Shown here: positions 494 through 53,511 of the stretch, piece after piece
Layout: the number at the start of each line of letters is the position of its first letter
Numbering within the stretch: position 1 is the stretch's first letter
Program-made: the position numbers and the translations under genes
The notes under the pieces: generated by a model
What the model was told of the DNA's origin: nothing
What the model saw: only the letters and a program-made list of their open reading frames with translations
Database searches by the model: none
Assembly: GCA_038062455.1 (NCBI GenBank)
Contig: JBBTXE010000001.1
Span: 58,371 to 122,370, forward strand
Origin: Patescibacteria group bacterium
GTDB taxonomy: Bacteria; Patescibacteriota; Microgenomatia; UBA12405
Length of the DNA: 64,000 nucleotides
Direction: 5' to 3'

Positions 494-1321
494 ATGAAAA
501 ACTATAATATTGCAAGTATTAAGAGTTTGGTTGACAAAGCCAAGTCGGCTTTAGTAGTCGTTCCCACCCTTTCCGTTGATAACGTTGGTGCCGCTCTCGC
601 CTTGGCCCTTTCCCTTAAAAAGAGTGGCCGCGAAGTCAAAGTCTATTGTCCTCAAAAACCTGATCAAAATTACAGCAAACTAAGCGGTTTGGAATTAATC
701 ACCGATACTTATATTGCTTCTGATCTGGTTGTTTCTCTTAACTACCCCCTCAATCAAATCGAACAGGTTTCCTACAACGATGACGGTGGTCGCCTAAATT
801 TGGTCGTTAAAACCAAATTCGGTGCCGCCAAGGTGGAAAACAGCCAAATTGTTATCAACAATAGTTCCTCTTCGACTGATCTTTGTTTTATGCTTGGTGA
901 CGAATCTCCGCTTGGTGCCAATGCCTCAATCGTCAATCAGGGAGACTGGATTTTAATTTCCCCCGTTGCTGTTACCAAAACCTGGGCCAAAGCCACTTTG
1001 GTTGATGCCGATGCTCCTTTTTCCGAAATCTTTACCTTTTTATTACCCATGCTTGGGTTAAATCTGGATATCGACTCCGGCAAGGATTTGCTCATTGGGC
1101 TTCGGGTAGCCACCCAGTCCTTTAGTGTCAATGTCTCCCCCGAATCTTTCGAAGCCGGGGCTGTTTGTCTTCGGGCTACCCAACCTCCTGAAGCTGACGG
1201 CCTTGCCGCTCCCGCTTTCGCCCCCAATACTTTTGACAATCAAACCCCGATTGAAAATATCGAAAAAGGCGCCTCTTTTGTTCCGGGCACCAACAAAGCC
1301 AATCCCACCCCGGTGGTTTAA
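494..1321 (+). CDS. hypothetical protein, degenerate DHH/NrnA-like fold (catalytic DHH-type residues not conserved)
   Basis: The N-terminus IKSLVDKAKSALVVVPTLSVDNVGAALALALSLKKSGREVKVY parallels the DHH phosphoesterase N-terminal motif region, but the Asp/His metal ligands are replaced. The position after infB is where nrnA-like genes often sit. Confidence 0.4.
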   Translation: MKNYNIASIKSLVDKAKSALVVVPTLSVDNVGAALALALSLKKSGREVKVYCPQKPDQNYSKLSGLELITDTYIASDLVVSLNYPLNQIEQVSYNDDGGRLNLVVKTKFGAAKVENSQIVINNSSSSTDLCFMLGDESPLGANASIVNQGDWILISPVAVTKTWAKATLVDADAPFSEIFTFLLPMLGLNLDIDSGKDLLIGLRVATQSFSVNVSPESFEAGAVCLRATQPPEADGLAAPAFAPNTFDNQTPIENIEKGASFVPGTNKANPTPVV

Positions 1322-1323
1322 AA
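1295..1323 (+). repeat. direct repeat copy 1 (29 nt, covers the last 8 codons plus stop of ORF 494-1321)
   Basis: aaagccaatcccaccccggtggtttaaaa is identical to 1622-1650. Confidence 0.9.
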
Positions 1324-1608: not shown

Positions 1609-1621
1609 TTCAAAAATTAAT

Positions 1622-1650
1622 AAAGCCAATCCCACCCCGGTGGTTTAAAA
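1622..1650 (+). repeat. direct repeat copy 2 (29 nt echo of the 3' end of ORF 494-1321)
   Basis: Perfect match to 1295-1323, non-coding in this context. Confidence 0.9.
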
Positions 1651-6858: not shown

Positions 6859-8610
6859 ATGACTACTGATAACAAAAATCGTCCTCAACAGTATTTTGGC
6901 TCCAAAGGCCCCATTAAAAATTTAGGATCTTCCCGCGATTTTGTCCGAATTGCCTCCCTTGGCGGTTTTGGTGATGTCACCCAAAATATGTTCGTTTACG
7001 AATATTTCCCCGGCGGTAACGAGGCCCAAAGCCAAATTATTATTGTTGATTGCGGGGTTGGTTTTCCTGAAGATGATGCCTTTGGTGTCGATCTTCAAAT
7101 CCCCGATACTAAATACCTCGAAGACAGAAAAACCCGGATTTTGGGTATTTTTATTACCCACGGTCACGAGGACCATATTGGGGCCATCCGTTTTATTCTG
7201 CCAATTTTAGGTAAATCCATTCCTATTTTTGCCCCCAAAACTGCCGCCGCCTTTATTGAATCACGACTCCAGGAAAGCCAAATCCGGGCTTCTATCAAGG
7301 TCTATCAAAACGGTGATCTTTTTAACATCGGCCCCTTTACCGTCGACCCCATCCGGGTCAATCATTCCATTCCCGACACTTTCCATTTTGCTATTACTAC
7401 CCCCATTGGCATTTTTTACCACGGTTCTGATTTCAAATTTGATGTTTTCCCCCTTGATGGCAAGCCTTCTGATTTAGCCCATATCGCCCGCATTGGTGAA
7501 AAGAAAGTTGTTGCCCTGCTATCGGACTGTTTAGGGGCCGACCACGAGGGTTTTTCACCCTCCGAGTCTTCCATTGCTGAAAAATTTGAACATGATATCA
7601 AAACCGCCAAAGGCCGGGTTTTTGTTACTTCCATTAGTAGCAATATTGTCCGCTGGGGGCAGGCTATCGACTATGCCAAGAGAGCCGGTCGAAAAGTAGT
7701 GGTAGTCGGCTTCTCGGTTACCAAAGCCATTGAAATTGCCCAGACCCTAGGTTATGTCAACCTCACCGACGCTGATTTAATTCCGGTTGAGCGGGTTAAA
7801 AATTTTGCCGATAATAAGCTAATCTTTTTAGTGGCCGGTTTTGCTGGTCAGCCCAATTCAGCCCTTTCTAAAATGGTTATGGGCAAACATAAAGTCAAAA
7901 TCAGCTCCGGCGATAAAGTCATTTTCTCTTCCCCCGACTACATTCCCGGCACCTCTACTCAAATCTATGATCTAATTGATACTCTTTCCAAAATGGGGGC
8001 TGAAGTAATTTATGGTGAAGAGCAGGAGATTCATGTTTCCGGCCACGGTTATCAAAAAGAACATGCTATTTTAATTGATTTGGTTCGGCCTAAATTTTTA
8101 CTTCCCATCGGCGGCAACTTTCGTCACATCAAAAGTTACCAAACCATGGCCAAAAACATGGGTTATCGTGACGACCAGTTTATCTTTCCTGATGTCGATT
8201 CAGCCGTTACTTTTACCTCTGATGGTAAAGCTGACACCAAATACCATATTCCACTTCACAAAGTCCTTATCGATGGTTTGGGAATCGGTGATGTCGGTAC
8301 CACTGTTTTACGGGACCGAAAAACTCTGGCCGAAGAAGGTATGTTTTCCTTTGTTATTTTACTCAACAAAGACAGCGGCAAAATGTTTAAAGAACCGGTT
8401 ATTCTTTCCCGCGGCTTTGTCTTTATGAAGGAAAATACGGATCTTCTTGATTATCTCAAAAAAGAAATCATTCGAAAATTTACCCAAGTGACCAGTTCTC
8501 CGGCCAATTTTGATTTTATCCGCGAAGAACTCCAGGCCTTTCTTGAAGGGATAATTCTCCAAAAAACCGGCCGCCAGCCCATGGTTTTACCCCTGATTAT
8601 TGAGGTATAG
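6859..8610 (+). CDS. rnj: ribonuclease J (metallo-beta-lactamase/beta-CASP)
   Basis: 583 aa. THGHEDHIGA motif, beta-CASP region and C-terminal domain. Confidence 0.9.
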   Translation: MTTDNKNRPQQYFGSKGPIKNLGSSRDFVRIASLGGFGDVTQNMFVYEYFPGGNEAQSQIIIVDCGVGFPEDDAFGVDLQIPDTKYLEDRKTRILGIFITHGHEDHIGAIRFILPILGKSIPIFAPKTAAAFIESRLQESQIRASIKVYQNGDLFNIGPFTVDPIRVNHSIPDTFHFAITTPIGIFYHGSDFKFDVFPLDGKPSDLAHIARIGEKKVVALLSDCLGADHEGFSPSESSIAEKFEHDIKTAKGRVFVTSISSNIVRWGQAIDYAKRAGRKVVVVGFSVTKAIEIAQTLGYVNLTDADLIPVERVKNFADNKLIFLVAGFAGQPNSALSKMVMGKHKVKISSGDKVIFSSPDYIPGTSTQIYDLIDTLSKMGAEVIYGEEQEIHVSGHGYQKEHAILIDLVRPKFLLPIGGNFRHIKSYQTMAKNMGYRDDQFIFPDVDSAVTFTSDGKADTKYHIPLHKVLIDGLGIGDVGTTVLRDRKTLAEEGMFSFVILLNKDSGKMFKEPVILSRGFVFMKENTDLLDYLKKEIIRKFTQVTSSPANFDFIREELQAFLEGIILQKTGRQPMVLPLIIEV

Positions 8611-8942: not shown

Positions 8943-9187
8943 TGAACAGTTTGTCTCTGACCCCCCGCCAAGACAAGTATCTTAAGGACAGGAGATTGGA
9001 AAAAAAGTTTATAAAACAACTTAATTTTCTTTTGGAAAACCCTTTTCACCCCAGTTTAAATCTTGAATTACTCGAACCCAAAGAAAAAGGTCTCTATAGC
9101 TTTCGTCTTGATCGTCAATATCGGGTTATCTTTATCTTCACCAAAGGCGATATTGAAGTTATCACTATCACCAACCATTATCGTTAA
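8939..9187 (+). CDS. RelE/ParE-family type II toxin
   Basis: 82 aa. LYSFRLDRQYRVIFIF..GDIEVITITNHY resembles the RelE/ParE core. Translationally coupled to the upstream small ORF. Confidence 0.6.
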   Translation: MMNSLSLTPRQDKYLKDRRLEKKFIKQLNFLLENPFHPSLNLELLEPKEKGLYSFRLDRQYRVIFIFTKGDIEVITITNHYR

Positions 9188-9204
9188 GTATCGAGGATTA
9201 ATTT

Positions 9205-9252
9205 AAACCGGCCGCTAACCCATGATTCTGCCCCTGATCATTGAAGGTATAG
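9205..9252 (+). repeat. diverged echo of the rnj 3' end (non-functional fragment)
   Basis: aaaccggccgcTAAcccatgattctgcccctgatcattgaaggtatag aligns with rnj 8564-8610 (TGRQPMVLPLIIEV* versus TGR*PMILPLIIEG...), with roughly four fifths of positions identical. Confidence 0.75.
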
Positions 9253-9997: not shown

Positions 9998-11419
9998 ATG
10001 GCTAAATCTCAACTTAAAGATTTCAACACTGATCTCTCCGGGTGGTTTAATGATGTCGTTTTAAAGGCCGAATTGGCCGACTATGCCCCGATCAAAGGTT
10101 GTATGGTTATTCGTCCTTACGGCTACGCCCTATGGGAAAACATTCAGAAATTTATGGACCCGCTCATTAAAAACAGGGGAGTTGAAAATGCCTATTTCCC
10201 CCTTTTCATACCCATGCACTATCTTCAAAAAGAAAAAGAACACATCGAAGGTTTTGCCCCCTTACTGGCAGTAGTTACTATAGGAGGAGGTAAAGAATTA
10301 ACCGAAAAATTGGCCGTCAGACCAACATCAGAAATGGTTATGTACGATCTGTATAAAAAATGGTTTGGCAGTTGGCGCGATTTACCGGTTCGCCTAAACC
10401 AATGGTGCAATATCGTCCGCTGGGAAAAACGAACTTACCTTTTCCTCCGCACTTCTGAATTTTTATGGCAGGAGGGTCATTGCGCCCACCTGACCCATGA
10501 ACAAAGTCAAGAAGAAGTTATCTGGGCAATTAACATGTATCAACAAACTTATCAGGAACTTATGGCTGTTTATGGAATTATTGGAGTCAAAAGCGACTCA
10601 GAAAAATTTGCCGGCGGAGCCAAAACTTACACTTTCGAATCTTTAATGCCCAGTGGCAAATCTCTCCAGGCCTGCACCTCTCACGATTTAGGCCAAAATT
10701 TTTCTAAATCCCTGGATTGGACCGTTCAGAACAAAGATGGTCAAAAAGTTCATCCTTGGCAAAATAGCTGGGGTTTCACCACTCGCAGTATCGGTGCTCT
10801 GATTATGACCCACGGTGATGAAAACGGATTAGTTCTGCCGCCCAAAATTGCCCCAATCCAGATCATTATTGTACCCATTCCCGGCCATCAGCAAGCTATT
10901 CTAAAATCGATAGAACTTTATGAAAAACTAAAAAATAATTATCGAGTTAAATTAGACAATGTTGACGGTGAAACCGCCGGTTTCAAATTTAATAAGTGGG
11001 AACTAAAAGGAGTACCTCTCCGTTTGGAAATTGGTGATGATGACGCATCTAAAGATTTAGTTACCATTTACCGTCGTGATACCGGGGCTAAAGAAAAAAT
11101 TGGTTTACTTAATTTAGAAAAATATCTCTTCTCCACCCTAGCCGGTATCCAAAACTCTTTATTTGCAAAACATAAAAAATTTACCAACGATAATACATTT
11201 TTAGTTGATTCTTACGATGAGTTTAAAAAAATTATGAGTACCACCCGGGGATTTATTTTAGCCCATTGGTGTGAAAACCCCGGTTGTGAAAACGAAATTA
11301 AAAAAGACACCAAAGCCACCACCCGCTGTCTCCCCCTGGATTCCAAAGAAGAAGAGGGTAAATGTATTCACTGTGGCAAGATTTCCCATCATCGTTGGCT
11401 CTTTGCCCTATCATACTAA
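9998..11419 (+). CDS. proS: proline--tRNA ligase (archaeal/eukaryote-like class II form)
   Basis: 473 aa. GCMVIRPYGYALWE..., class II motifs, and a C-terminal zinc-binding CENPGCE...CIHCG. Confidence 0.93.
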   Translation: MAKSQLKDFNTDLSGWFNDVVLKAELADYAPIKGCMVIRPYGYALWENIQKFMDPLIKNRGVENAYFPLFIPMHYLQKEKEHIEGFAPLLAVVTIGGGKELTEKLAVRPTSEMVMYDLYKKWFGSWRDLPVRLNQWCNIVRWEKRTYLFLRTSEFLWQEGHCAHLTHEQSQEEVIWAINMYQQTYQELMAVYGIIGVKSDSEKFAGGAKTYTFESLMPSGKSLQACTSHDLGQNFSKSLDWTVQNKDGQKVHPWQNSWGFTTRSIGALIMTHGDENGLVLPPKIAPIQIIIVPIPGHQQAILKSIELYEKLKNNYRVKLDNVDGETAGFKFNKWELKGVPLRLEIGDDDASKDLVTIYRRDTGAKEKIGLLNLEKYLFSTLAGIQNSLFAKHKKFTNDNTFLVDSYDEFKKIMSTTRGFILAHWCENPGCENEIKKDTKATTRCLPLDSKEEEGKCIHCGKISHHRWLFALSY

Positions 11420-11453
11420 TAATACTTGATACTTAATACATAATACGTAATAC
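11412..11453 (+). repeat. heptanucleotide tandem array, NTRATAC units x5-6
   Basis: catacta ataatac ttgatac ttaatac ataatac gtaatac, ending 7 nt before the ftsK ATG. Confidence 0.8.
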
Positions 11454-11460
11454 TGTATAT

Positions 11461-32649: not shown

Positions 32650-32690
32650 CTTTATAAACTTTACAAACTTTTTAACTTTATAAACTCAAA
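32648..32690 (+). repeat. 8-9 bp tandem repeat AACTTTAY(A) x5 filling the rpsL-rpsG spacer
   Basis: aactttat a aactttac a aacttttt aactttat a aactcaaa. Confidence 0.7.
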
Positions 32691-32692
32691 CA

Positions 32693-33175
32693 ATGTCTAG
32701 AAAAGGTCAAACTAAAATTCGTCGTCTCGAACCCGACACTCTCTACCAGAGTCCGATTGTCGCCAAATTAATTAATCGCAGTCTTAAAGACGGCAAAAAA
32801 ACTGCCGCTCAAAATCAGGTCTATAAAGCTCTGGAAATTTTGAAAAAAGAATCTAAATCCGAAGACGTTTTAACCACTCTCGAACAGGCTCTGGATAATA
32901 TCAAACCCAAGGTTGAGGTCCGCCCCCGCCGAATCGGTGGCGCTGTCTATCAAGTGCCGACTCCGGTTCGGGGTTCCCGCCAATATTCCCTGGCCATCCG
33001 TTGGCTGGTCACTGCCGCCCGGGCCCGGGCTAACAAACAATATCATACTTATGGTGAAAAACTGGCCGCCGAACTATTTTCAGCTTTCAATGGTGAAGGC
33101 GCCGCTGTTACCAAACGAAGTGAAGTTGAACGTATGGCCGAGGCCAACAAGGCGTTTTCACATATGCGTTGGTAA
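32693..33175 (+). CDS. rpsG: 30S ribosomal protein S7
   Basis: 160 aa. PDTLYQSPIVAKLIN...AEANKAFSHMRW. Confidence 0.97.
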   Translation: MSRKGQTKIRRLEPDTLYQSPIVAKLINRSLKDGKKTAAQNQVYKALEILKKESKSEDVLTTLEQALDNIKPKVEVRPRRIGGAVYQVPTPVRGSRQYSLAIRWLVTAARARANKQYHTYGEKLAAELFSAFNGEGAAVTKRSEVERMAEANKAFSHMRW

Positions 33176-33180
33176 ACTTC

Positions 33181-33960
33181 CTATAAACCTCTTGCCACTC
33201 TCCTTAAAACAACATTAGTTGTTTGTTCTGGGGTCAAAAAATGGGGAACTTGATAAGAGTCAGTATCCCTAACAAGACCTAACATGTACGGGTAAAGTGC
33301 TTTTCTAACTTCCATCGCCGACAATTCCCTTGTAGATGTAAGAAAAGAAGTGTGTAGCTCTGGCCGGTGCTTAAATAGACGAATAATATCAACTGGCCCA
33401 TCCGCTTGCATTCTGGTTATTATTTTCAACCAATAGGGGTTTTCAACATTAGCACACCAAACAGCTGGAGCAATCCGCCTATGGATCTGCAAATAATGTT
33501 CTTCGTCCGGAACATCAACTTCCTTCTCAGGCAAAAGAATCACGGCATCAACCAAACCCGACGTTGACCATAATTGTTCTCTCTGTTCAATATTAACGAT
33601 TGGCTGTCTTCCTTTTTGTCTGACAATATATGAATCTGGCTCCAGCATTAAAACAAAAGGTGTGTTTATGTCTGCCGTCAGAGCTCTAACCTCTCGCATT
33701 TCTGATACGGCCCACATATGTCCCCGGGTTCCCTCAAACCCACCCGACATTACCATCTTCCGAGCATTTTTAAAGTCACCATCAAAAATTGCACTATTCT
33801 CTTGCGCTAGACCACTATCAAACGAAAGGTTAAAAACTGGACAAGGCGGTTGGGTAAAACCCTCCCTTAGTAAAGGCAAACAATTGATGACCCAATTGGC
33901 CACCTTCCAACTCCTCCAATTTTCCCTAATATCATTCTCTACTTCATTTCTTGCGCCCAT
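33181..33960 (-). CDS. hypothetical protein with a cytidylyltransferase-like (RfaE-II/TagD-like) core and a degenerate HxGH motif
   Basis: KMVMSGGFEGTRGHMWAV...IVRQKGRQPIVNIEQREQLWSTSGLVDAVILLP parallels nucleotidyltransferase motifs GxFDxxHxGH ... R...L..L..VD.V. Confidence 0.35.
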   Translation of the reverse strand: MGARNEVENDIRENWRSWKVANWVINCLPLLREGFTQPPCPVFNLSFDSGLAQENSAIFDGDFKNARKMVMSGGFEGTRGHMWAVSEMREVRALTADINTPFVLMLEPDSYIVRQKGRQPIVNIEQREQLWSTSGLVDAVILLPEKEVDVPDEEHYLQIHRRIAPAVWCANVENPYWLKIITRMQADGPVDIIRLFKHRPELHTSFLTSTRELSAMEVRKALYPYMLGLVRDTDSYQVPHFLTPEQTTNVVLRRVARGL

Positions 33961-34004
33961 TTTTTATGAAGACAGTACAACTTAACGAACAAAGTATATC
34001 AAAA

Positions 34005-34043
34005 GCCAAAGCCAATAAAGCCTTTTCTCACATGAGGTGGTAA
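34005..34043 (+). repeat. echo of the rpsG 3' end (AKANKAFSHMRW*), non-functional fragment
   Basis: Codon-by-codon comparison with 33137-33175. The ten residues ANKAFSHMRW are identical, with six synonymous codon changes, the same stop, and a similar first few nt after the stop. Confidence 0.8.
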
Positions 34044-34056
34044 ATTTCAGGTCTCC

Positions 34057-34443
34057 TTACACATCTCCAACCACTGCTCCGAAAGTTTTCTTCTCCAGAT
34101 TCTCAATTCTATCGGTATTACTAGTTGTCTGGTGGCCGATAATCTCCCTGTATTCTCGACTCTCTTTTATCTCCAGTGCGAAAGTATCCACCGCATTCAT
34201 AATCTCTGATTTCCAATCGAGGAGTTTATTTTCAAGTTCTTTTATTCGATTTTCAACTTTCACCTCAATCAACCCTTCCAATCTCTTATTTTGTTCTTCA
34301 AGTTTTACATCCATTACCTCTCCAAGTTTCTTCTCTTGGGCCACAAGCTTGGTATCAATAAATCCGGTTAACCTTTTATCCTGAGCCTCAAGCTTGGTCT
34401 CGATCAGTTTTGAAATTTCCGAAATCAGTTTCGTATCATCCAT
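34057..34443 (-). CDS. hypothetical coiled-coil protein with four 15-aa tandem repeats
   Basis: TKLEAQDKRLTGFID / TKLVAQEKKLGEVMD / VKLEEQNKRLEGLIE / VKVENRIKELENKLL. Confidence 0.5.
   Translation of the reverse strand: MDDTKLISEISKLIETKLEAQDKRLTGFIDTKLVAQEKKLGEVMDVKLEEQNKRLEGLIEVKVENRIKELENKLLDWKSEIMNAVDTFALEIKESREYREIIGHQTTSNTDRIENLEKKTFGAVVGDV
34219..34398 (-). repeat. 45-nt in-frame tandem repeat x4 within the coiled-coil ORF
   Basis: Derived from the 15-aa periodicity of the translation (aa 16-75). Confidence 0.6.
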
Positions 34444-34447
34444 GAAA

Positions 34448-34864
34448 TTATTCTACCACTAAAATCTTTCCCGATTTTATATCCTCAAAAAACTTTTTTG
34501 TTCCCGGATATAGTGGTAAATTCAACGCTTCATCAACCGTAAACCAACCGTATTCCGAAATCTCACCACTATCAAATTTCATTTCCTGATTTTCTTTCAT
34601 TTCCACCAACCAAAACGACACGGTTTTTACCTTCGTATCCGCCGCCACTGTAACCAGTTTTTTTAACGGTACTACTTCTACCCCAATTTCTTCCTTTGTC
34701 TCCCTAATAACAGCACTTTCTTCATTTTTATCCTCCGGATTTAATCGTCCATGTGGTGGTCCCCAATGTCCATTCAATAAATCTCTCGCCTCCTTTATCA
34801 TCAAAAACTTACCATCTTTTTTTATTACCGCCACCACCCCATGACTACTAAAATCTATATCCAT
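34448..34864 (-). CDS. NUDIX hydrolase
   Basis: Nudix box GHWGPPHGRLNPEDKNEESAVIRETKEEIGVEV. Confidence 0.8.
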   Translation of the reverse strand: MDIDFSSHGVVAVIKKDGKFLMIKEARDLLNGHWGPPHGRLNPEDKNEESAVIRETKEEIGVEVVPLKKLVTVAADTKVKTVSFWLVEMKENQEMKFDSGEISEYGWFTVDEALNLPLYPGTKKFFEDIKSGKILVVE

Positions 34865-34866
34865 AG

Positions 34867-36567
34867 TTATTTTTTAAGATACGACCAAAGCAAACTAAAA
34901 TCGTTTGGTTCCAAAACAATCATTTTACAACGTTGATAGTAGGTATATCCTTCTTGTAGTTTTTTGGAGAGCGATTTCTGGCCACCATCTTTTTCATTAA
35001 AAAGAACCAACTTCTTGCCCTTGAGTAAAATATGTTCAAGGGAAATAAATTTCTTTTCTTGAAAATTAAATCGGTTTTGAAATAAACCCAAACCAAGACT
35101 TGTTGTTCCCAAAGCCGAAAAACCCACGATTTTTAGTTTTGGATTTATTTTTTTCAAATTTTCGAGAAGTTTATTTAAGTCGTCAAGGATTTTAATGTAA
35201 TAATTTTCGGTCAGAAAAAGTTTTTCCATGTGGTAGTTATGCAATGCAATTTCATTGTCTTTTTTGATGTCAAAAATATCTTTAGAACCCAAATCGGATT
35301 CAGACAATGTTCCATTCATAACTTTTTGCCAACTCGAACTTTTTAATGGCACAAATGCACAAACCCCGACAATTTTTCCACCAAACTCATAGACCATACC
35401 AAACTCCGGATTATTCGCATACCATGCTCCCATATTAGTTGGGGTAACAGGGTTTTGGGTGGGATAAACACGATTGTCAAAACCAAGTATCCGCCTATAA
35501 TCGCCTTTATCTATTGGACGGAGGTTTACTGACAACCATTGTTTTTTATTAGGGACAATCATTGGTTCGTATCCTGGACCCGTTAATGGTGTTTTGACGA
35601 TACGGAAATCAAGTTTCACCACATTTCTAGGAAATCCGCGTAAATAGTTTTCAATATTTCGGGCAAAACTTTCCTGTTTAGTCGCCGTAGCCTCTTCAGT
35701 AGTAAAACCGATTGGGAGATGAATAACGCAATTGCTAAGATGTTTGAGAACCTCTAATTGTTTCGCTTCAACCTCATCAGAATGATCAAAAATAAAGGTC
35801 ATATCATTTTTATTTAGTCTGTTAACTAATGCGTCAAAGCTTATAAGTTCCATTGGACTTGGGTTTATCAGAACCGCTCCTTTCTTTATCAAATTTATTT
35901 TCTCCCCATCTAAAAAATTTTTCGTCTCTGAGTTGAGGGAAATGTTTAGGGTAATAAAATCAGATGTTCGAATTAATTTATCTAATTCCATATACTCAAT
36001 GCCTAGATTTTTTTCTTCCGTTTCTTTTCTTCGTCTTGACCAATATCTGACATTTGCCCCAAAAGCTTTGGCAATTTCAGCGGTGCGATGCCCAATGTTA
36101 CCCAGACCAATTACCCCAAAACTTTTACCTTTTATTTCCACTCCGACAAATGTTGACCCGGAATAATTGCCCCGCCTTGCTTCATTTTTCTCCCGTTCTA
36201 TCTCCCGTATCTGATCAAAAATCCATCCAAAAGTCATCTCTACCACACCTTCGGTTGCGTAGTCTCTGACATTTGTAACTACAATCTTTTTGGAGTTACA
36301 ATACGCCAAATCTATCCCTCCGGTTCCGGTACCAAGCATCCCAATATATTTAAGATTAGGAACCATGCCAATAAACTCTTTGGTGATCTTGTCTCCGACC
36401 GGTTTTAAAAGCAGGGCATCGGCATTTTTTAGTTCAGATTGTAACTTAGGGTCATCTTTCGAGATTAAAACTTTATTTATAGTTAAAGGATCAATCCGGT
36501 GCCAATACTGTGTCCAAAGTTCAGATCCGCGATAGTTGAGAAAGACCATTTTCTTGAATTTGGTCAT
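34867..36567 (-). CDS. fusion protein: D-isomer-specific 2-hydroxyacid dehydrogenase domain plus a C-terminal GNAT-like/unknown domain
   Basis: NAD-binding GVIGLGNIGHRTAEIAKAFGANV and a downstream catalytic region in the first ~310 aa. The remaining ~250 aa has an acetyltransferase-like beta-strand pattern (GKIVGVCAFVPL). Confidence 0.6.
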   Translation of the reverse strand: MTKFKKMVFLNYRGSELWTQYWHRIDPLTINKVLISKDDPKLQSELKNADALLLKPVGDKITKEFIGMVPNLKYIGMLGTGTGGIDLAYCNSKKIVVTNVRDYATEGVVEMTFGWIFDQIREIEREKNEARRGNYSGSTFVGVEIKGKSFGVIGLGNIGHRTAEIAKAFGANVRYWSRRRKETEEKNLGIEYMELDKLIRTSDFITLNISLNSETKNFLDGEKINLIKKGAVLINPSPMELISFDALVNRLNKNDMTFIFDHSDEVEAKQLEVLKHLSNCVIHLPIGFTTEEATATKQESFARNIENYLRGFPRNVVKLDFRIVKTPLTGPGYEPMIVPNKKQWLSVNLRPIDKGDYRRILGFDNRVYPTQNPVTPTNMGAWYANNPEFGMVYEFGGKIVGVCAFVPLKSSSWQKVMNGTLSESDLGSKDIFDIKKDNEIALHNYHMEKLFLTENYYIKILDDLNKLLENLKKINPKLKIVGFSALGTTSLGLGLFQNRFNFQEKKFISLEHILLKGKKLVLFNEKDGGQKSLSKKLQEGYTYYQRCKMIVLEPNDFSLLWSYLKK

Positions 36568-36623
36568 ATTAGGAATTATATAACTTTTTGAATCTTGAGT
36601 TTTCTTTATGCTATCCTTATTTA

Positions 36624-37931
36624 ATGTCTCTATTTGGTGGTCACCGGGTGGTTATTTGGCCCAAGGCCAAAACGCTTGATATCTATCTTTCCCGATCAGA
36701 TGACAATATCCTCTCTTTTGACATCAATCTCTGGCAAGCCTTAGCCGATACCGAAATCACCCGTCTCTCTCAATTTTTAAAAAGTAACCATTTTACCTCC
36801 GCCACCGTTTTAATCGAGGACAACGTTGTTTTTACCAAATCCTTTATTTACGATCAGGCCGTCACCTCCCTTGACCCAAGAGAAGTTGTGGCTTTAGCCA
36901 AAGATATGGTTTCTTTTGACATCGACCTCAGCTCGGTCACCTTCGAGCTTGTTCCCAAAGGCGACAAAACCCTGGTCCAAACCCGGATATTTAATCAAAA
37001 AAAATTAGCCCCACTTCTGAAAAATCTGTCCCTTCTTAACTTAAAACTAAAATACTCTGCCGTTTCCGAAAGCTTGGCCAAAATTTTCTCCCGCTTTTAC
37101 CAAAAACCCTTTTTTGTCTTTTATCCTTTGGCAGATGATTCTGAATACATCGCCGCCCTTTGTGCTAAAGACAAGGTCTATTTTACCTCTCCTATCAAAA
37201 AGGCTCTTCCCGAAGTCAAAAAGATAATCAATTATTCCAAATCTTATTTTAGTACCCAAATTTCCAAAGTTTTTCTTCCTGAAAGTATTGCTGCCAACCT
37301 CGATCTGCCCGATGTTGACAAAACTACCTATGTCGAATCCCAAGTTAACATCGATATAAATTTACCCAGTAACCTCCCTCTGCCGGTAGCTGGTATAATA
37401 GGAGTACCTATGGAAAACAAAAAAAACATCCTTCCAATTATTGCTGTTTTTCTCTTCACCGCCATTATCGCCGCCGTTATTGTTTGGGTGGTTTTAACCC
37501 AGAGCAATAAAAGCAGTGATGTTACCAATCCTTCCGCCGATTTAATTACCCCCGTTTCCTCAATCGATCTTTCCCCGACTCCGGCAGTAACAGTCGTCAT
37601 GCCGTCTAAAGCTCTAAAGTTCCAAGTGCTGAATGCTACTGATATCAGCGGTCAGGCTGCCACCATCAAGGCCGAATTAGTTAAACTGGGTTTTAGTAGT
37701 GTCACTGTCGGTAATTCCCAGGGGGCAGTTACCGGCAACGAAATTCAGTTAAAATCAGCCCTATCAACCAGTTCTGCTTATTTTAAGTCCAAAATAGCCG
37801 GATTTGCTGATGCTGCTGTCGGTGAGTTAAAAACCAATTCTACTTATGATGTTATTTTCATTATCGGTGTTGACTTAAAAACCGGTCAACCTTCGGCTAC
37901 CGCCACTCCCCAATTAACCCCCGCCCAATGA
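36624..37931 (+). CDS. membrane protein with a LytR_C (LytR/CpsA/Psr C-terminal) domain
   Basis: TM helix ILPIIAVFLFTAIIAAVIVWVVL. C-terminal KFQVLNATDISGQAATIKAELVKLGF...VIFIIGVD. ATG at 36624 chosen; a TTG at 36588 is possible. Confidence 0.55.
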   Translation: MSLFGGHRVVIWPKAKTLDIYLSRSDDNILSFDINLWQALADTEITRLSQFLKSNHFTSATVLIEDNVVFTKSFIYDQAVTSLDPREVVALAKDMVSFDIDLSSVTFELVPKGDKTLVQTRIFNQKKLAPLLKNLSLLNLKLKYSAVSESLAKIFSRFYQKPFFVFYPLADDSEYIAALCAKDKVYFTSPIKKALPEVKKIINYSKSYFSTQISKVFLPESIAANLDLPDVDKTTYVESQVNIDINLPSNLPLPVAGIIGVPMENKKNILPIIAVFLFTAIIAAVIVWVVLTQSNKSSDVTNPSADLITPVSSIDLSPTPAVTVVMPSKALKFQVLNATDISGQAATIKAELVKLGFSSVTVGNSQGAVTGNEIQLKSALSTSSAYFKSKIAGFADAAVGELKTNSTYDVIFIIGVDLKTGQPSATATPQLTPAQ

Positions 37932-38944
37932 AGATACTAGTCACCGGCGGTTCCGGCTTTATCGGATCCAATTTTGTCCGTTTTTGGCTTTCCCGGCATC
38001 CCGACGACGAAGTTTCCAATCTCGATAAACTCACTTATGCCGCCAATCCCCAAAGCCTTAGCGATGTTGCCGCCAATCCTCACTATCACTTTGTCCGGGG
38101 CGATATTTGTGATCCCCTGGCAGTTGACAATTTTGTCTCTTCGGGTATTGAATTAATTGTCCATTTTGCCGCCGAATCTCACGTTGATCGTTCGTTGGAT
38201 GACCCGGAGGCTTTTCTTAAAACCAATATTTTTGGCACCCATCTTCTCCTTGAAGCCGCCAAAAAATATCAAATTCGTTTTCACCACATCTCCACCGATG
38301 AAGTTTACGGTGCTCTCCCCCTCAATTCACCGGTCAAATTTAGCGAAACCACTCCCTATGATCCCCGCTCTCCCTATTCGGCCTCCAAAGCCGCTTCTGA
38401 TCATTTTGTTATGGCCTATTATCATTCTTTCGGATTATCGGTAACCATCACCAATTGTTCCAACAATTACGGCCCGTATCAGTCCCCGGAAAAATTTATT
38501 CCCCGAATGATCACCAATTTAATTGACGGTCAAAAAATTCCTATTTATGGCGATGGCCTCTATGTCCGCGATTGGCTCTATGTCGCCGACCACTGTAGTG
38601 CAATTGAGGCAGTGATTCAAAAAGGGGAAATCGGTCAAACTTACAATGTCGGCGGCTTAGTCAAAGATGTTCCCAACATCGAGATTGCCCAAACTATTTT
38701 AAAATTAATGTCCAAAGATGAATCCAGTGTTGAACACGTTCCTGACCGTCCCGGTCACGACCGCCGCTATTCGGTTGATTGGTCCAAAATAAATTCCAAA
38801 CTTGGCTGGCAGCCATCACTCACTTTCGAAGAGGGGATTGCGGCCACGATTTCATGGTATCAGGACAATGAATCATGGTGGCGGCCGATGAAAACCGAAG
38901 CCGAAGAATTTTACCGCCATCTGGCCGCCTCTCGAAAAAAATAA
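37928..38944 (+). CDS. rfbB: dTDP-glucose 4,6-dehydratase
   Basis: MKILVTGGSGFIGSNF, YSASKAASD catalytic YxxxK, and the family-typical C-terminus. Confidence 0.93.
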   Translation: MKILVTGGSGFIGSNFVRFWLSRHPDDEVSNLDKLTYAANPQSLSDVAANPHYHFVRGDICDPLAVDNFVSSGIELIVHFAAESHVDRSLDDPEAFLKTNIFGTHLLLEAAKKYQIRFHHISTDEVYGALPLNSPVKFSETTPYDPRSPYSASKAASDHFVMAYYHSFGLSVTITNCSNNYGPYQSPEKFIPRMITNLIDGQKIPIYGDGLYVRDWLYVADHCSAIEAVIQKGEIGQTYNVGGLVKDVPNIEIAQTILKLMSKDESSVEHVPDRPGHDRRYSVDWSKINSKLGWQPSLTFEEGIAATISWYQDNESWWRPMKTEAEEFYRHLAASRKK

Positions 38945-38965
38945 AATCTGCTACAATCTTTCTGT

Positions 38966-39526
38966 ATGATGAAATTTACTCCTCTATCTTTGTCGGGATT
39001 AATGTTAATCGAACCCCAAGTCTTTGGTGACGACCGCGGTTTTTTTATGGAAACATATTCCAAAAAAGAATTCACCCAAAACGGTATTAATATCGATTTT
39101 GTTCAGGATAATCATTCCCGGTCCGGCAATGGTGTTCTCCGTGGCCTTCACTTCCAAAAACCCCCTTTTGCCCAGGCCAAATTAATTCGGGTAAGCATGG
39201 GTGAAGTTCTCGATGTGGCAGTCGACATCCGCCCCGATTCTTCCACCTTTGGCAAATGGGATTCAGCCCATCTTTCAGCCGAAAATAAAAAAATGCTTTT
39301 TATTCCAGTCGGTTTTGCCCATGGTTTTTATTGTCTGACTGAAATTGTTGATTTCCAATACAAATGCAGCTCTTTCTATGATAAAGAGTCCGAAAGCGGT
39401 TTTTTATGGAACGACCCCGATGTCAATGTTGGTTGGTTGGCAGCGTCTCCTGTTCTCTCCGAAAAAGATAAATTACTGCCTTCCTTCAAATCCCAAATCA
39501 AGGATCTCAAAAAACTTGTCTGGTAA
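38966..39526 (+). CDS. rfbC: dTDP-4-dehydrorhamnose 3,5-epimerase
   Basis: FGDDRGFFMETY...VLRGLHFQ..P.AQAKL.RV..G...DVAVDIR signature. Confidence 0.92.
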   Translation: MMKFTPLSLSGLMLIEPQVFGDDRGFFMETYSKKEFTQNGINIDFVQDNHSRSGNGVLRGLHFQKPPFAQAKLIRVSMGEVLDVAVDIRPDSSTFGKWDSAHLSAENKKMLFIPVGFAHGFYCLTEIVDFQYKCSSFYDKESESGFLWNDPDVNVGWLAASPVLSEKDKLLPSFKSQIKDLKKLVW

Positions 39527-39535
39527 TTTTTATAA

Positions 39536-39570
39536 ATTATACGTAATACTTGATACTTAATACTTAATAC
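39536..39570 (+). repeat. heptanucleotide tandem array, NTRATAC units x5
   Basis: attatac gtaatac ttgatac ttaatac ttaatac, ending 5 nt before the rfbD ATG. Confidence 0.8.
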
Positions 39571-39575
39571 GTCTT

Positions 39576-40454
39576 ATGAAAATCATCGCCACCGGTATCA
39601 CCGGCTTAGTTGGTTCCCGAATTTCAGAGCTTAACCCCGATCTTTCTTTTGCCGATATTTCCATTGAATCCGGCATCAGTATTCTGGATCCAGTGGCTTT
39701 AGAAAAAGTATTTACTAACAACCCCGACGCTGTCACCGTTTTACATTTAGCCGCCTTTACTGATGTTAATGGGGCTTGGTCACAAAATAAAGACCAAAAT
39801 GGTTTATGTTTCCAGTTAAATGTCACCGGTACTCAAAATATTGTCAATCTATGTAAAAAATATGGTAAATATTTAATTCACATTTCTACCGATTATGTTT
39901 TTGACGGCACCAAGGAAGGAAAATATTTAGAAACCGATACCTCCAGTCCGATCGAATGGTATGGTGAAACCAAATATTTAGCTGAAAAAGTCGTCCTCGA
40001 TTCCGGCATCAAAGCCGCCATCCTTCGTCTGGCTTTTCCTTATCGCGCCTCTTTCGAGCCCAAAAAAGATATTGTCCGAAAATTAATTGACGGTTTTAAG
40101 GTCGGCAAACTTTATCCCCAATGGACCGATCATTTTACCTCACCCACCTTTATTGATGATATCGCTGTCGCTGTCCGTAAATTTATCGACAACCAATACA
40201 CCGGTATCTACCATTGTTGCGGCTCTTCCGCCCAGTCACCCTTTGATATGTGTCAATTAATTGCCGAAGTTTTTGGGTTTGATAAATCGTTAATTGTCGC
40301 CTCAACTTTGGCTGAATTTCTTACCACCCAGGCTCCTGGTTCCCGCCCTTGGCAAAAAAATCTCTCCCTCGATAATTCTAAAATTACCGCTCTGGGTATC
40401 AAAATGAAAACTCTCCGCGAAGGCCTTGAAGAGATGAAACGTCAGCTTTCTTAG
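39576..40454 (+). CDS. rfbD: dTDP-4-dehydrorhamnose reductase
   Basis: Rossmann N-terminus GITGLVGS, HISTDYVFDG, YGETKYLAE catalytic motif. Confidence 0.85.
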   Translation: MKIIATGITGLVGSRISELNPDLSFADISIESGISILDPVALEKVFTNNPDAVTVLHLAAFTDVNGAWSQNKDQNGLCFQLNVTGTQNIVNLCKKYGKYLIHISTDYVFDGTKEGKYLETDTSSPIEWYGETKYLAEKVVLDSGIKAAILRLAFPYRASFEPKKDIVRKLIDGFKVGKLYPQWTDHFTSPTFIDDIAVAVRKFIDNQYTGIYHCCGSSAQSPFDMCQLIAEVFGFDKSLIVASTLAEFLTTQAPGSRPWQKNLSLDNSKITALGIKMKTLREGLEEMKRQLS

Positions 40455-41634
40455 CCACCTTCTCCCCCTCCCGCACCCCAAAGTTAATCCCCCTATCTTC
40501 CGGATAAATATTGGCAAAATTCACGTTGATAATTTTTCCGGCTGTTTTTTGATAATTGATAATTGAGTGTTGATAATTGGCATCAACGATATGTTGCGCA
40601 TATTTAAATTTGAAAATATTTTTCTCTGAAATTTGTTTTTTATCAAAATCGGGTAAAATCTTTTTCAAATAATCAAAAAACTCCTGCCAAATTATTTTGT
40701 CATCAACTTTAAAATATCTATGGTTTTGAGGAAGATAGGTGCCAAGATAATAGACTTGTTTTTCTTGGTACTGAGTACTTGGTACTAAGTTCGTGTGTTG
40801 AATCATCGCCACGAAAGGGGATTTGGGATCAGTAATATTATGCCAATAAAATTTACTCAAATTTTGAGTTGATGAAAACACTGCCGTTATTGCCCCCAAA
40901 TAATCAACATTTAGTAACGCTTCCGAACTGATCACTGTATCGTAATTCGTAATTCGTAATTCGTAATTCGTAATTTTTGTATTTAGCTTTATTTCTCCCC
41001 CCAACTTCTTAATTCTCTTTTTCAGTTCTTTGATTATTTGCCCAAATCCCCCCATTAAATAACCCAATTTTTCACCACCTTTTTCGCTCGAATTGGCTCG
41101 GGTGTGAATTCGGGCCCAGAGCCAGGCCATCGAAATATCCTGATATCGATTGGCAAATTTTCCTTTTAATAACGGCTCCCAAATAATTTCATAGGCTCTT
41201 TCTCCACACCACTTTTTCATCCATTGATAGGCTAAAACATTTTCAAACTTCTGCCACTTTTTTTCTTTTTCCAAATAAATCTTTACTAAACCCAAACGAA
41301 CTTTGTCAAAAATATTTAACGGCTTAAAATGCAGTAAATCTATTGCCCCATTAAATGGCCACATTTTTTTACCAAAATATATCGCCGTTGATCCGTTAAA
41401 CCATTTTAATTTTGACGATAGTCCCAAGTCTTCAATTAATTCGATAATATATTTATCGGTTTTAAAAATATGATGATAGGCTTTCTCCAAACCCTTCCCC
41501 TCAATTTTAAAAGACCCCAAAAGTCCGCCCAATTCCTTTTCTTTTTCAAAAATCGTCACCTCGTGTCCCGCTTGTAATAATCGATACCCTGCCACCAATC
41601 CGGTTATTCCGGCTCCGATAATTGCTACCTTCAT
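40399..41634 (-). CDS. FAD/NAD(P)-binding oxidoreductase (amine oxidase/protoporphyrinogen-oxidase-like)
   Basis: MKVAIIGAGITGLVAGYRL...IFEKEKELGG dinucleotide-binding motif. Its 3' end overlaps rfbD convergently by 56 nt. Confidence 0.7.
   Translation of the reverse strand: MKVAIIGAGITGLVAGYRLLQAGHEVTIFEKEKELGGLLGSFKIEGKGLEKAYHHIFKTDKYIIELIEDLGLSSKLKWFNGSTAIYFGKKMWPFNGAIDLLHFKPLNIFDKVRLGLVKIYLEKEKKWQKFENVLAYQWMKKWCGERAYEIIWEPLLKGKFANRYQDISMAWLWARIHTRANSSEKGGEKLGYLMGGFGQIIKELKKRIKKLGGEIKLNTKITNYELRITNYDTVISSEALLNVDYLGAITAVFSSTQNLSKFYWHNITDPKSPFVAMIQHTNLVPSTQYQEKQVYYLGTYLPQNHRYFKVDDKIIWQEFFDYLKKILPDFDKKQISEKNIFKFKYAQHIVDANYQHSIINYQKTAGKIINVNFANIYPEDRGINFGVREGEKVAKKADVSSLQGLRGEFSF
40938..40975 (+). 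repeat. heptanucleotide tandem array (ATTCGTA) x4 perfect, plus degenerate/partial units, inside a CDS
   Basis: tatcgta attcgta attcgta attcgta attcgta att, read on the minus strand as KITNYELRITNYD. Confidence 0.9.
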
Positions 41635-41655
41635 TGTGCTAAAATTTTATCATTT

Positions 41656-42429
41656 ATGAAACTCACTGTTTTAGGTTGTGGTTCTTTCTTCGTTAGTGCT
41701 AATCAAACCGCCTCGGCCTTTCTGCTAGAAACCGCCGGAAAGAAGATATTGATTGATTGTGGTCCCGGCACTCTGGTTCGTCTTTCAGAACAGAAAGTAA
41801 AACTTGAGGACATCGATTATGTTTTTCTCACCCACTTCCACCCCGATCATTCCTCCGACTTGTTCCCCCTATTCATGAATTATAAATTGACTGATTTTTT
41901 TACTCCGGGCACTTTGACCAAATTTCCTGAATTCTTTGGCCCCGAAGGTTTTGATAAATTTTTTCTTGATTATTCTCACTTATGTCAATTACACAGTTAT
42001 GAAAACTGGAAAAAAATTAAACTTAATGACCATCAACCGGAAATTAAATTAGGTAATATCACTGTTAAAACCTTTAAAGTTGATCACAATGCTTTTGGTA
42101 TATTTGCCAAGGCCTATGCTCTTCGTTTCGAGGCCGAGGGTAAAACCATTGTCTTTTCCGGGGATAGTGCCATTTGCCCCGGTATCAGGCAAGCTTGTCA
42201 AGGAGCCGATCTTTTTGTTTGTGATACATCCTATCCTAAGGGTAAAAGCGCTCCTTCCCATATGGATACTATAGATATTGGTAATATTTGCCAGGCAGGT
42301 AAAGTCAAAAAAGTAGTGTTAACCCACTTTTATCCTCAGTTTGCTGATAGCGATTTTGTTTCTGAAATAAAAGAAAACTTTAATGGTGAAGTTGAAAGCT
42401 GCCACGACGGCCTGAAATTAGAATTTTAG
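41656..42429 (+). CDS. MBL-fold metallo-hydrolase (RNase Z-like)
   Basis: LTHFHPDHSSDL metal-binding motif; 257 aa. Confidence 0.7.
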   Translation: MKLTVLGCGSFFVSANQTASAFLLETAGKKILIDCGPGTLVRLSEQKVKLEDIDYVFLTHFHPDHSSDLFPLFMNYKLTDFFTPGTLTKFPEFFGPEGFDKFFLDYSHLCQLHSYENWKKIKLNDHQPEIKLGNITVKTFKVDHNAFGIFAKAYALRFEAEGKTIVFSGDSAICPGIRQACQGADLFVCDTSYPKGKSAPSHMDTIDIGNICQAGKVKKVVLTHFYPQFADSDFVSEIKENFNGEVESCHDGLKLEF

Positions 42430-42511
42430 GTCGGGCATTGTAAATTTATTTTCCCATTGCTATGATACTATGTTTATACTTCAGCTTTAATTATTATAAT
42501 AATTTATCTAA

Positions 42512-42546
42512 AAAATACGTAATACTTAATACGTAATACTTGATAC
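42512..42546 (+). repeat. heptanucleotide tandem array, NTRATAC units x5
   Basis: aaaatac gtaatac ttaatac gtaatac ttgatac, ending 9 nt before the fusA ATG. Confidence 0.8.
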
Positions 42547-42555
42547 TATTTTTAT

Positions 42556-44675: not shown

Positions 44676-45278
44676 GTGGTCGTTGACGATCCTTTTCGTT
44701 TTGCTGATAAATTTGCCGTCAAATCATCCCGTTTACCAAATTGGGACTACTCATCTCCCGGAATATATTTCAATACTATTTGCACTCTCAATCACAATAA
44801 TTTCTTTGGAAAAATTGTTGATAATAAAATGGTTTTGTCGACTTGCGGTCAGATTGCTCGCGATGAATTAATTAAAACAATTCAAATTCGAAACAATATT
44901 TCCATCGACCTGTGGGTAATAATGCCCAACCATATTCATCTGTTAATCACCATTTATGATTGTCATGTAGAGACGCCCCGCGGGGCGTCTCTACGAATAA
45001 ACCCCACGTCTCTACAGCAAAATAAAGTGATAACCATATCTCAAGAAAAACGCGAGTTGTTTCAGAGGTTAAATACCAAATCAAATCAAATAGTCCCGAA
45101 AATGATTAATCAATTTAAATCACGTGTCACTCTGGTTTGCAGACAAAACAATTTCTTTTTCGCCTGGCAATCTCGTTTTTATGATGAAATCATCAAAGAC
45201 AATCAACGGTTTATGGTAGTTAAACACTATATTCAAAACAATATTGCTAACTGGAACAAAGATAAATTCTATCGATAA
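44676..45278 (+). CDS. IS200/IS605-like HUH Y1 transposase, REP-associated (RayT-like)
   Basis: HUH motif PNHIHLL and the catalytic Tyr region WQSRFYDEII. Flanked by, and interrupted in-frame by, 28-bp palindromes. The GTG start is uncertain. Confidence 0.7.
   Translation: MVVDDPFRFADKFAVKSSRLPNWDYSSPGIYFNTICTLNHNNFFGKIVDNKMVLSTCGQIARDELIKTIQIRNNISIDLWVIMPNHIHLLITIYDCHVETPRGASLRINPTSLQQNKVITISQEKRELFQRLNTKSNQIVPKMINQFKSRVTLVCRQNNFFFAWQSRFYDEIIKDNQRFMVVKHYIQNNIANWNKDKFYR
44967..44994. repeat. REP-like perfect 28-bp palindrome GTAGAGACGCCCCGCGGGGCGTCTCTAC (inside the RayT-like ORF)
   Basis: Self-complementary. Translated as VETPRGASL. The next ~22 nt resemble the sequence following the 45285 copy. 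Confidence 0.9.
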
Positions 45279-45284
45279 TAATCC

Positions 45285-45312
45285 GTAGAGACGCCCCGCG
45301 GGGCGTCTCTAC
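45285..45312. repeat. REP-like perfect 28-bp palindrome (downstream of the RayT-like ORF)
   Basis: Identical to 44967-44994. Confidence 0.9.
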
Positions 45313-49327: not shown

Positions 49328-49338
49328 TCTATCAATTA

Positions 49339-49373
49339 ATTCGTAATTCGTAATTCGTAATTGATAATTAATT
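49339..49373 (+). repeat. heptanucleotide tandem array: ATTCGTA x3, ATTGATA, ATTAATT
   Basis: Ends 4 nt before the rpsS ATG. Shares a 23-nt stretch (attcgtaattcgtaattgataatta) with the 53477 array. Confidence 0.85.
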
Positions 49374-53442: not shown

Positions 53443-53476
53443 TAAATAGTTTATTTTTTAAAAAATAAAAAATTAA

Positions 53477-53511
53477 ATTCGTAATTCGTAATTGATAATT
53501 AATAATTAATA
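53477..53511 (+). repeat. heptanucleotide tandem array: ATTCGTA x2, ATTGATA, ATTAATA x2
   Basis: Ends 3 nt before the rplF ATG. Confidence 0.85.

Follow-up and report, generated by a model that had tools for sequence, protein, structure and literature searches.

A displaced second 3′ end of rpsG beside an inserted gene in an uncultured Patescibacteria bacterium, consistent with recombination between related lineages

The rpsG locus and its second 3′ end

We analyzed a 64,000-nucleotide (nt) stretch of the genome of a Patescibacteria group bacterium (the window; assembly GCA_038062455.1, contig JBBTXE010000001.1, positions 58,371 to 122,370), concentrating on rpsG, which encodes ribosomal protein S7, and on a short second version of its 3′ end located behind an inserted gene (Table 1). 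The resident rpsG encodes a full-length S7 domain, with PF00177 covering positions 2–148 of 148. Its resident tail (T1) reads GCC GAG GCC AAC AAG GCG TTT TCA CAT ATG CGT TGG TAA. Beginning 868 bases downstream of T1, a relic that we call the echo (T2) reads GCC AAA GCC AAT AAA GCC TTT TCT CAC ATG AGG TGG TAA. The interval between the two consists of 5 bases, a minus-strand gene encoding a protein of 259 amino acids (aa), and the 44 bases upstream of that gene. On the far side of the echo, 13 bases separate its stop codon from the stop of a minus-strand gene for a 128-aa protein.

T1 and T2 agree at 30 of 39 bases, encode identical residues at 11 of 12 positions, and end in the same stop codon. 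Synonymous differences affect six codons (those for N, K, A, S, H, and R, including CGT versus AGG), and a single non-synonymous codon changes GAG to AAA (E to K). The tail match reported in the initial annotation was thereby confirmed, with the non-synonymous codon as an addition, as was the minus-strand orientation of the intervening gene. No ungapped similarity extends past the 39 bases on either side, and the longest exact run is 7 nt (TGGTAAA). The echo is not an S7 gene: its likeness to S7 is confined to 12 codons, before which the frame is unrelated. We compared the tails with 120 S7 homologues at 67–99% identity, the named ones belonging to Candidatus Shapirobacteria, Woesebacteria, or Patescibacteria. 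The C-terminal variant AFSHMRW, common to T1 and T2, occurs in 4 of these, closest relatives only, and lysine at the E/D tail position in none of the 120. There is no Rfam match at the echo up to E = 1.

Table 1 Features of the rpsG locus and of two similar cases in the window
Feature	Coordinates	Strand	Remarks
rpsG, ribosomal protein S7, 160 aa	32693..33175	+	Intact and functional-looking; Pfam PF00177, E = 5e-51
Resident tail (T1)	33137..33175	+	Final 12 rpsG codons plus stop; AEANKAFSHMRW, then stop
259-aa gene	33181..33960	-	Convergent with rpsG (stops 5 nt apart); predicted cytidylyltransferase-like nucleotidyltransferase fold
Upstream region of the 259-aa gene	33961..34004	-	Extended -10-like motif TGATATACT, reverse complement of 33993-34001
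Putative junction and microhomology zone	34005..34016		GCCAAAGCCAAT; reads as S7 codons A-(E/K)-A-N and as distal upstream region of the 259-aa gene
Echo (T2)	34005..34043	+	Displaced rpsG 3′ end relic, outside any gene; AKANKAFSHMRW, then stop
128-aa coiled-coil gene	34057..34443	-	Convergent rpsG neighbor in relatives
NUDIX hydrolase gene	34448..34864	-	Older block; Pfam PF00293, E = 1.6e-17; follows the 128-aa gene in L106, L111, and L112
566-aa D-2-hydroxyacid dehydrogenase fusion gene	34867..36567	-	Last of the minus-strand insert; Pfam 2-Hacid_dh and 2-Hacid_dh_C
447-aa LytR_C-domain gene	36588..37931	+	Called start 36624; ancestral downstream neighbor of rpsG in the clade
Case A, tail of 275-aa gene (494-1321) and echo	1292..1323 and 1619..1650	+	Flank an 89-aa open reading frame, 1339-1608
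Case B, RNase J tail and diverged, frameshifted echo	8563..8610 and 9204..9252	+	Flank putative antitoxin (8658-8942) and toxin (8939-9187)

We searched the whole window in six frames with the 13-residue ends of its 60 long open reading frames (ORFs). Apart from the rpsG echo and two similar cases (A and B; Table 1), no background match of at least 9 of 13 residues was found, which speaks against the possibility, named in the initial annotation, that the match is a motif recurring by chance. The probability that nine random substitutions in 39 bases change at most one residue and leave the stop intact is P ~ 1e-5. The match between T1 and T2 is not due to chance. The same arrangement is present in about 20 contigs from some 17 samples, assembled with at least two different pipelines, at 100% identity to the window, or at 99.4% with indel errors, and all available strains are identical at the echo. 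Because the arrangement recurs in these contigs, and exact runs between T1 and T2 do not exceed 7 bases, it is not an assembly artifact. The exact proteins of the window were found in Hainich groundwater metagenomes. Two long same-strain contigs (L012 and L013; ERZ1300416 and ERZ2470813) match the window at 99.4% identity but contain about 60 single-base indels, which break rpoC, rfbB, and the 566-aa gene into pieces. These have the appearance of sequencing errors that went uncorrected, not of pseudogenes.

Relatives of the locus and the inserted gene

Seven loci with the region downstream of rpsG were recovered from relatives. In a scan of genome contigs for S7, matches to the universal MAEANKAF pattern predominated, and the one useful relative to emerge was L025. 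What follows rpsG differs among these relatives. In L105 (S7 93% identical at the amino acid level), 118 nt precede a homologue of the 447-aa LytR_C gene; the same homologue lies behind 600 nt in L109 (78%) and behind 23 nt in L025 (69%), where rfbA/B/C/D come next. In L112, from the same aquifer (91%), and in L106–108 (89%), rpsG is followed after 18 nt by a convergent homologue of the 128-aa gene (62% identical at the amino acid level in L112, 76% in L106–108) and then by a NUDIX gene. L111 (92%) has a 149-aa NUDIX gene abutting the rpsG stop, then a 128-aa homologue (88%), then a further NUDIX gene. The 259-aa gene lies behind rpsG in none of these relatives.

A blastn alignment places positions 623–1214 of L112 (reverse complement) colinear with window positions 34005–34592 at 72% identity. 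The alignment begins exactly at the echo, which corresponds to the position 39 nt before the stop of the functional L112 rpsG. The echo therefore occupies the site at which relatives have their functional rpsG tail, before the same convergent gene pair. In the window, 868 bp made up of T1, 5 nt, and the 259-aa gene with its upstream region come between this site and the body of rpsG. L106–108 are colinear with the window from the stop of the 128-aa gene onward.

Comparison of both tails with the rpsG 3′ ends of relatives, as the initial annotation had proposed, placed T1 nearest to the tail of L108 (36/39) and T2 nearest to that of L112 (34/39). Six of the nine degenerate codons that encode the same residue in T1 and T2 differ synonymously. 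Over whole rpsG genes, the corresponding fraction between the window and L105, L106, L111, and L112, all without the insert, is 0.33–0.42, and it rises to 0.50–0.53 for the more distant L109 and L025; divergence between T1 and T2 is thus at least as large as that between species. Because T1 and T2 each have a nearer match among relatives than in one another, and because their divergence reaches at least this level, the two tails come from different alleles.

Immediately behind the rpsG stop, relatives have nothing, the 149-aa NUDIX gene, or the 259-aa gene, and this site is a recurrent insertion point. In L111, the spot of the 259-aa gene is filled by the 149-aa NUDIX gene (1737–2186, original orientation), which has the 128-aa homologue on one side and touches the rpsG stop codon on the other; no echo accompanies it.

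For the 259-aa protein, Pfam and PADLOC gave no match and NCBIfam none that was significant; there was a weak match to rfaE_dom_II, and a sequence search of its profile against PDB returned nothing meaningful. An AlphaFold model built from a profile of 35 family members reached a predicted local distance difference test (pLDDT) score of 92 and a predicted template modeling (pTM) score of 0.89. Foldseek matched the core of the model to CTP:phosphocholine and glycerol-3-phosphate cytidylyltransferases and to flavin adenine dinucleotide (FAD) synthetase with probability 0.99–1.0, yet with template modeling scores of just 0.3–0.4 over about 110–200 residues and partial coverage. The family-invariant sequence GGFEGTxGH resembles the nucleotidyltransferase signature GxFDxxHxGH but deviates from it. 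The predicted structure points to a divergent cytidylyltransferase-like enzyme and not a recombinase.

Its 43 homologues occur in unrelated genomic contexts: beside methyltransferases and a TrwB-like gene, beside Fic and AbiEii, and between rplU and ftsW. None of them adjoins rpsG, and none is in a viral contig. Given the predicted fold, the unrelated contexts, and the lack of an integrase and of viral relatives, we regard the insert as unable to mobilize itself. Echoes of neighboring genes' tails were found beside none of the other family members (L020, L022, L024, and L111–L124), and the 259-aa gene itself thus does not create echoes.

Upstream of the 259-aa gene, the sequence TTTGATATAyTT is kept in the L020 and L022 homologues, with the variant TTTGTTATACTT in L116. 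This conserved motif looks like an extended -10 element (TGnTATACT) and hence a putative promoter; a consensus scan of promoters and terminators gave counts no higher than in shuffled controls. Since the promoter-like motif is conserved upstream of homologues, the unit that moved would comprise the predicted promoter together with the gene.

Homology of this upstream region to L020, L022, and L116 reaches to approximately 34014–34016 and so overlaps the first four codons of the echo, GCC AAA GCC AAT; blastn of the window against L020 spans 33183–34014. The 12 bases at 34005–34016 align with TTGGaTTTGtGC upstream of all three homologues, match the cassette's TTGGnTTTGnGC on the opposite strand, and match the S7 tails of L105 and L106 (GCCGAAGCCAAT, GCC GAA GCC AAT) at 11 of 12 positions. 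The sole non-synonymous codon, AAA for GAR, falls inside this overlap. From these alignments, we infer an illegitimate joint within a 12-base microhomology, which would account both for the point at which the relic starts and for the location of the E-to-K codon.

A recombination model and its alternatives

We consider it very probable that the window is a recombinant, with rpsG(T1) and the 259-aa gene on the left derived from one lineage (X) and T2, the 128-aa gene, and the NUDIX gene on the right derived from another (Y). The two would be related, Shapirobacteria-like lineages, relatives at the level of species. For the mechanism, we favor, with less assurance, homology-facilitated illegitimate recombination (HFIR), in which rpoC-rpsL-rpsG served as the anchor and the far end of the cassette was joined within the recipient's rpsG tail. 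Lineage Y would have carried rpsG(T2), a spacer of 13–18 nt, the convergent 128-aa gene, and the NUDIX gene, a layout that four relatives retain, and lineage X would have carried rpsG(T1), 5 nt, and a convergent 259-aa gene that had a promoter of its own. Upon DNA uptake, the conserved rpoC-rpsL-rpsG region of X would have paired with the Y chromosome, and the non-homologous upstream edge of the cassette would then have joined illegitimately at the 12-base microhomology in the recipient rpsG tail. The product would be an intact rpsG with the donor T1 and an intact 128-aa gene downstream; the recipient's last 10–12 codons and stop would be left as non-coding sequence just upstream of the promoter of the 259-aa gene. 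Because the convergent spacers measure only 4–18 nt, a joint that spares the downstream gene will almost always fall in the tail of the upstream gene. Three parts of this account are ones that we infer: the direction of transfer, and with it the identity of the native tail; the joint at the microhomology; and entry by DNA uptake.

Several points weigh against this account. The tail phylogeny draws on 39 bases, and the proposed microhomology joint on 12 bases and the upstream regions of three homologues. No empty-site strain was found: every near-identical contig has the insert, and variants with 99% identity in S7 and in the 128-aa protein, looked up for an empty site, returned the same arrangement. 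The layout in which rpsG is followed directly by the 259-aa gene with no echo is absent from about 15 family contexts drawn from a protein collection, Joint Genome Institute (JGI) metagenomes, and viral contigs. A sliding-window comparison with five relatives detected no mosaic breakpoint within rpsG, and consequently the anchor cannot be positioned inside the gene; it could lie further upstream. Finally, the data fit equally well a right-hand anchor that imported T2 together with the block behind it.

This last scenario, in which T1 and the 259-aa gene are native and T2, the 128-aa gene, the NUDIX gene, and possibly the 566-aa gene came from a relative with the L112/L106 layout, strikes us as unlikely though far from negligible. 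It places the homology anchor on the right and the left end of the donor fragment 39 nt before the donor rpsG stop. It would suit the observations that T1 is nearer than T2 to the tails of most relatives, that the GC content of the block (0.37–0.39) is below that of rpsG (0.48) and of the 259-aa gene (0.43), that the block is missing in L105, which has the most similar S7, and differs in content in L111, and that the 447-aa gene shares with L105 a very recent ancestry of its own. Yet the GC content of the block is within about 1.4 standard deviations of the mean for genes of the window, and its tetranucleotides are unremarkable. The layout with rpsG followed by the 128-aa gene is moreover the commonest among close relatives and so probably ancestral, and all three echoes in the window would need donor ends 32–48 nt from a stop codon. 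An account in terms of a site-specific integrative element, an 868-bp unit mobilized in trans at an attachment (att) site in the rpsG 3′ end with T1 and T2 as attL and attR, we judge improbable. Direct repeats of a gene end that flank an insert and restore the gene do have the classic look of integration into tRNA or protein-gene ends, case A has near-perfect 32-nt repeats, and L109 encodes a tyrosine recombinase 3.7 kb downstream of rpsG. The unit itself, though, contains no recombinase, and no integrase was found among the Pfam-scanned ORFs of 33181–37931 and 40399–42429. T1 and T2 share no identical core, given their 7-nt longest run and 30/39 identity; they differ synonymously rather than at random; and other members of the 259-aa family lack echoes of their neighbors' tails.

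Duplication of the rpsG end when the 259-aa gene was inserted, whether at the target site or in tandem, followed by divergence in place, would likewise leave direct repeats around one inserted gene. The substitution pattern makes this highly improbable: neutral decay would yield no more than one residue change and an intact stop with P ~ 1e-5, and in-situ divergence with selection on T1 alone would render at least seven of the nine changes synonymous-looking with P ~ 0.013, or 0.0008 when the junction zone is left out. Moreover, T1 and T2 are each nearer to the tail of a relative (L108 and L112, respectively) than to one another, and they differ at least as much as do species that lack the insert. 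We give equally little credence to a function for the echo, either as the end of a 25-aa ORF (33966–34043, MKTVQLNEQSISKAKANKAFSHMRW) or as an antisense or promoter-proximal element of the 259-aa gene. The ORF starts with ATG and has an intact stop, and the echo coincides with the would-be -35/UP region of the promoter of the 259-aa gene; by inspection, however, no Shine-Dalgarno-like sequence precedes the ORF, its part upstream of the echo lacks S7 similarity, it has no Rfam match, and such an ORF occurs at no other locus. The echo of case B, with a stop and a frameshift, shows that echoes decay, which argues against function. The echo represents the 3′ tip of an rpsG allele, left stranded, and is neither a gene nor a decayed local duplicate.

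The older block, recurrence, and known systems

The echo forms the boundary between the youngest insert, which consists of the 259-aa gene and the replacement tail, and an older block containing the 128-aa and NUDIX genes. This block is itself variable, since L111 has no homologue of the 566-aa gene. Within the 128-aa gene, an internal 45-nt repeat lies in 34265–34404 (34331–34359 and 34376–34404), and the L106–108 homologue, at 188 aa, has a second match to the repeat segment (L106 623–1189), which suggests repeat expansion or contraction in this protein.

The 447-aa gene beyond the block has a history of its own. Between the window and L105, it is 95% identical at the nucleotide level (window 36605–37488 against L105 626–1509), compared with 85% for rpsG (window 32693–33176 against L105 25–508). 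Synonymous codon differences number 23 of 268 in the 447-aa gene and 48 of 145 in rpsG (Fisher P = 1e-9). The high identity to L105 begins 19 nt upstream of the called start of the gene, and neither T1 nor T2 is L105-like. This discordance would imply a separate, recent recombination or deletion event in the lineage of the window or of L105. The interval from rpsG to the 447-aa gene is thus a mosaic within which recombination has occurred.

In L025, L109, and L105, whose S7 proteins are 69–93% identical to that of the window, rpsG is already followed by the 447-aa homologue and not by fusA, and window positions 37928–40454 match the rfbB/C/D genes of L025. The separation of rpsG from fusA is accordingly older than the echo event, and because these relatives already have the 447-aa gene after rpsG, the echo does not record the splitting of the str operon. 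On this point we depart from the initial annotation, which placed the echo at the start of the island that splits str. Its other main proposals have held up: that the echo evolved as a real S7 C terminus elsewhere and marks a recombination junction is supported by the substitution pattern, the relationships of the tails, and colinearity with relatives, and its view that the echo is not a decayed in-situ duplicate agrees with the probabilities given above. The compositional check that it suggested for 33181–42555 did not single out foreign DNA: by GC content, GC content at third codon positions (GC3), and tetranucleotides, both the insert and this island are within the normal range of the window, and the compositionally atypical segments are core rpoB-rpsG and fusA. 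Such unremarkable composition fits exchange among close relatives.

Other repetitive features of the window were recorded. A gene resembling repetitive extragenic palindromic (REP)-associated tyrosine transposases lies between fusA and tuf (44676–45278; NCBIfam NF047646, E = 1e-10; Y1_Tnp, a weak Pfam match). The 28-nt sequence GTAGAGACGCCCCGCGGGGCGTCTCTAC, a perfect palindrome, occurs inside its frame (44967–44994), again just after it (45285–45312), and in the spacer between rpsG and the 447-aa gene of L109 (10972–10999). AT-rich heptamer tandem repeats of TAATACN and AATTCGT types are mainly found in short intergenic regions, one of them directly upstream of fusA (11400–11460, 39524–39570, and 42500–42546; 40930–40992, 49338–49372, and 53476–53510). 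One AATTCGT array is located within the coding sequence of a 411-aa FAD oxidoreductase and encodes RITNYELRITNY, and a similar ACTTTAT-type repeat occupies the rpsL-rpsG spacer (32650–32692).

The two similar cases in the window share the succession of tail, insert, and echo. In case A, a 32-nt direct repeat comprising the last 9 codons, stop, and AA of the 275-aa gene is 31/32 identical (97%), the lone difference being synonymous (AAC/AAT). The 89-aa ORF that it flanks contains cysteines and is located just upstream of an 80-aa ORF and rpsO. The rpsG echo and case A both start at AAT AAA GCC (N-K-A), 9 to 7 codons before the stop. In case B, the flanked pair has a strong TTGACA-17-TAATAT promoter and a RelE/HigB/YoeB-like toxin (HigB, YoeB, and ParE matches). 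Its echo is 85% identical over 40 nt, with three synonymous substitutions (two in TTA to CTG, one in ATT to ATC), one V-to-I change, CAG to TAA at the left edge, and a 1-nt insertion, and 4 nt separate its end from the stop of a convergent gene (9257–9664).

Three such cases within 64 kb suggest a recurrent process. That accessory genes systematically enter this candidate phyla radiation (CPR) lineage at the 3′ ends of conserved genes, bringing a replacement tail with them, is a doubtful extension. Its cause could be transformation combined with one-sided homologous recombination as the main means of gene gain, or it might be an unrecognized mechanism that targets gene ends. Because the layout occurs three times in 64 kb and the genes behind rpsG are variable, echoes could be simple markers with which to count and date one-sided recombination in metagenome-assembled genomes, and counting them would test natural transformation as a driver of gene gain in CPR bacteria. 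The rpsG locus gives a base-pair-resolved record of gene gain in an uncultured CPR bacterium, in which an essential ribosomal gene stays intact by means of a borrowed tail, and it is the first such scar that we document for a CPR ribosomal gene.

Integrase-encoding islands insert into the 3′ ends of tRNA, transfer-messenger RNA (tmRNA), or protein genes with duplication of the att site. As at rpsG, a direct repeat of the gene end flanks the insert, and the replacement end brought by the insert keeps the gene intact. The rpsG case differs in having neither an integrase nor an identical core, in repeats that diverge at 9 of 39 positions with a synonymous pattern, and in an insert of one enzyme gene, 0.87 kb long. 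A closer likeness in outcome is offered by rearrangement hotspot (Rhs), contact-dependent inhibition (CDI), and type VI secretion system (T6SS) effector loci, where, according to PMC5361080 and its references, displacement of 3′ modules leaves orphaned 3′ regions. There, the gene is taken over by a newly arrived module whose 5′ part is conserved, and the old 3′ end persists downstream as a non-functional relic of a different allele. At rpsG, by contrast, the relic consists of only 10–12 codons of a ribosomal protein gene, there is no toxin/immunity selection, and the cargo is a separate convergent gene instead of a new C-terminal domain.

HFIR during natural transformation is known from Acinetobacter, Streptococcus pneumoniae, and Pseudomonas stutzeri (de Vries and Wackernagel 2002; Prudhomme et al. 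2002; Meier and Wackernagel 2003, as cited in PMC5361080), and HFIR together with displaced, orphaned 3′ regions has been documented (PMC5361080, PMC3240628). Natural competence has been demonstrated in cultured CPR bacteria, for Saccharibacteria only (PMC10633639). The rpsG locus resembles HFIR in that a conserved gene would serve as a one-sided homologous anchor, the other end of the foreign DNA would be joined at a short microhomology, and a gene is gained that relatives lack at that site. It differs in being read from sequence, in that the joint would lie inside the recipient's copy of the anchor gene, with a short piece duplicated and not deleted, and in that the host is an uncultured CPR bacterium. 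The rpsG echo is a clean example of a recombination scar of a known kind, and not a new molecular system.

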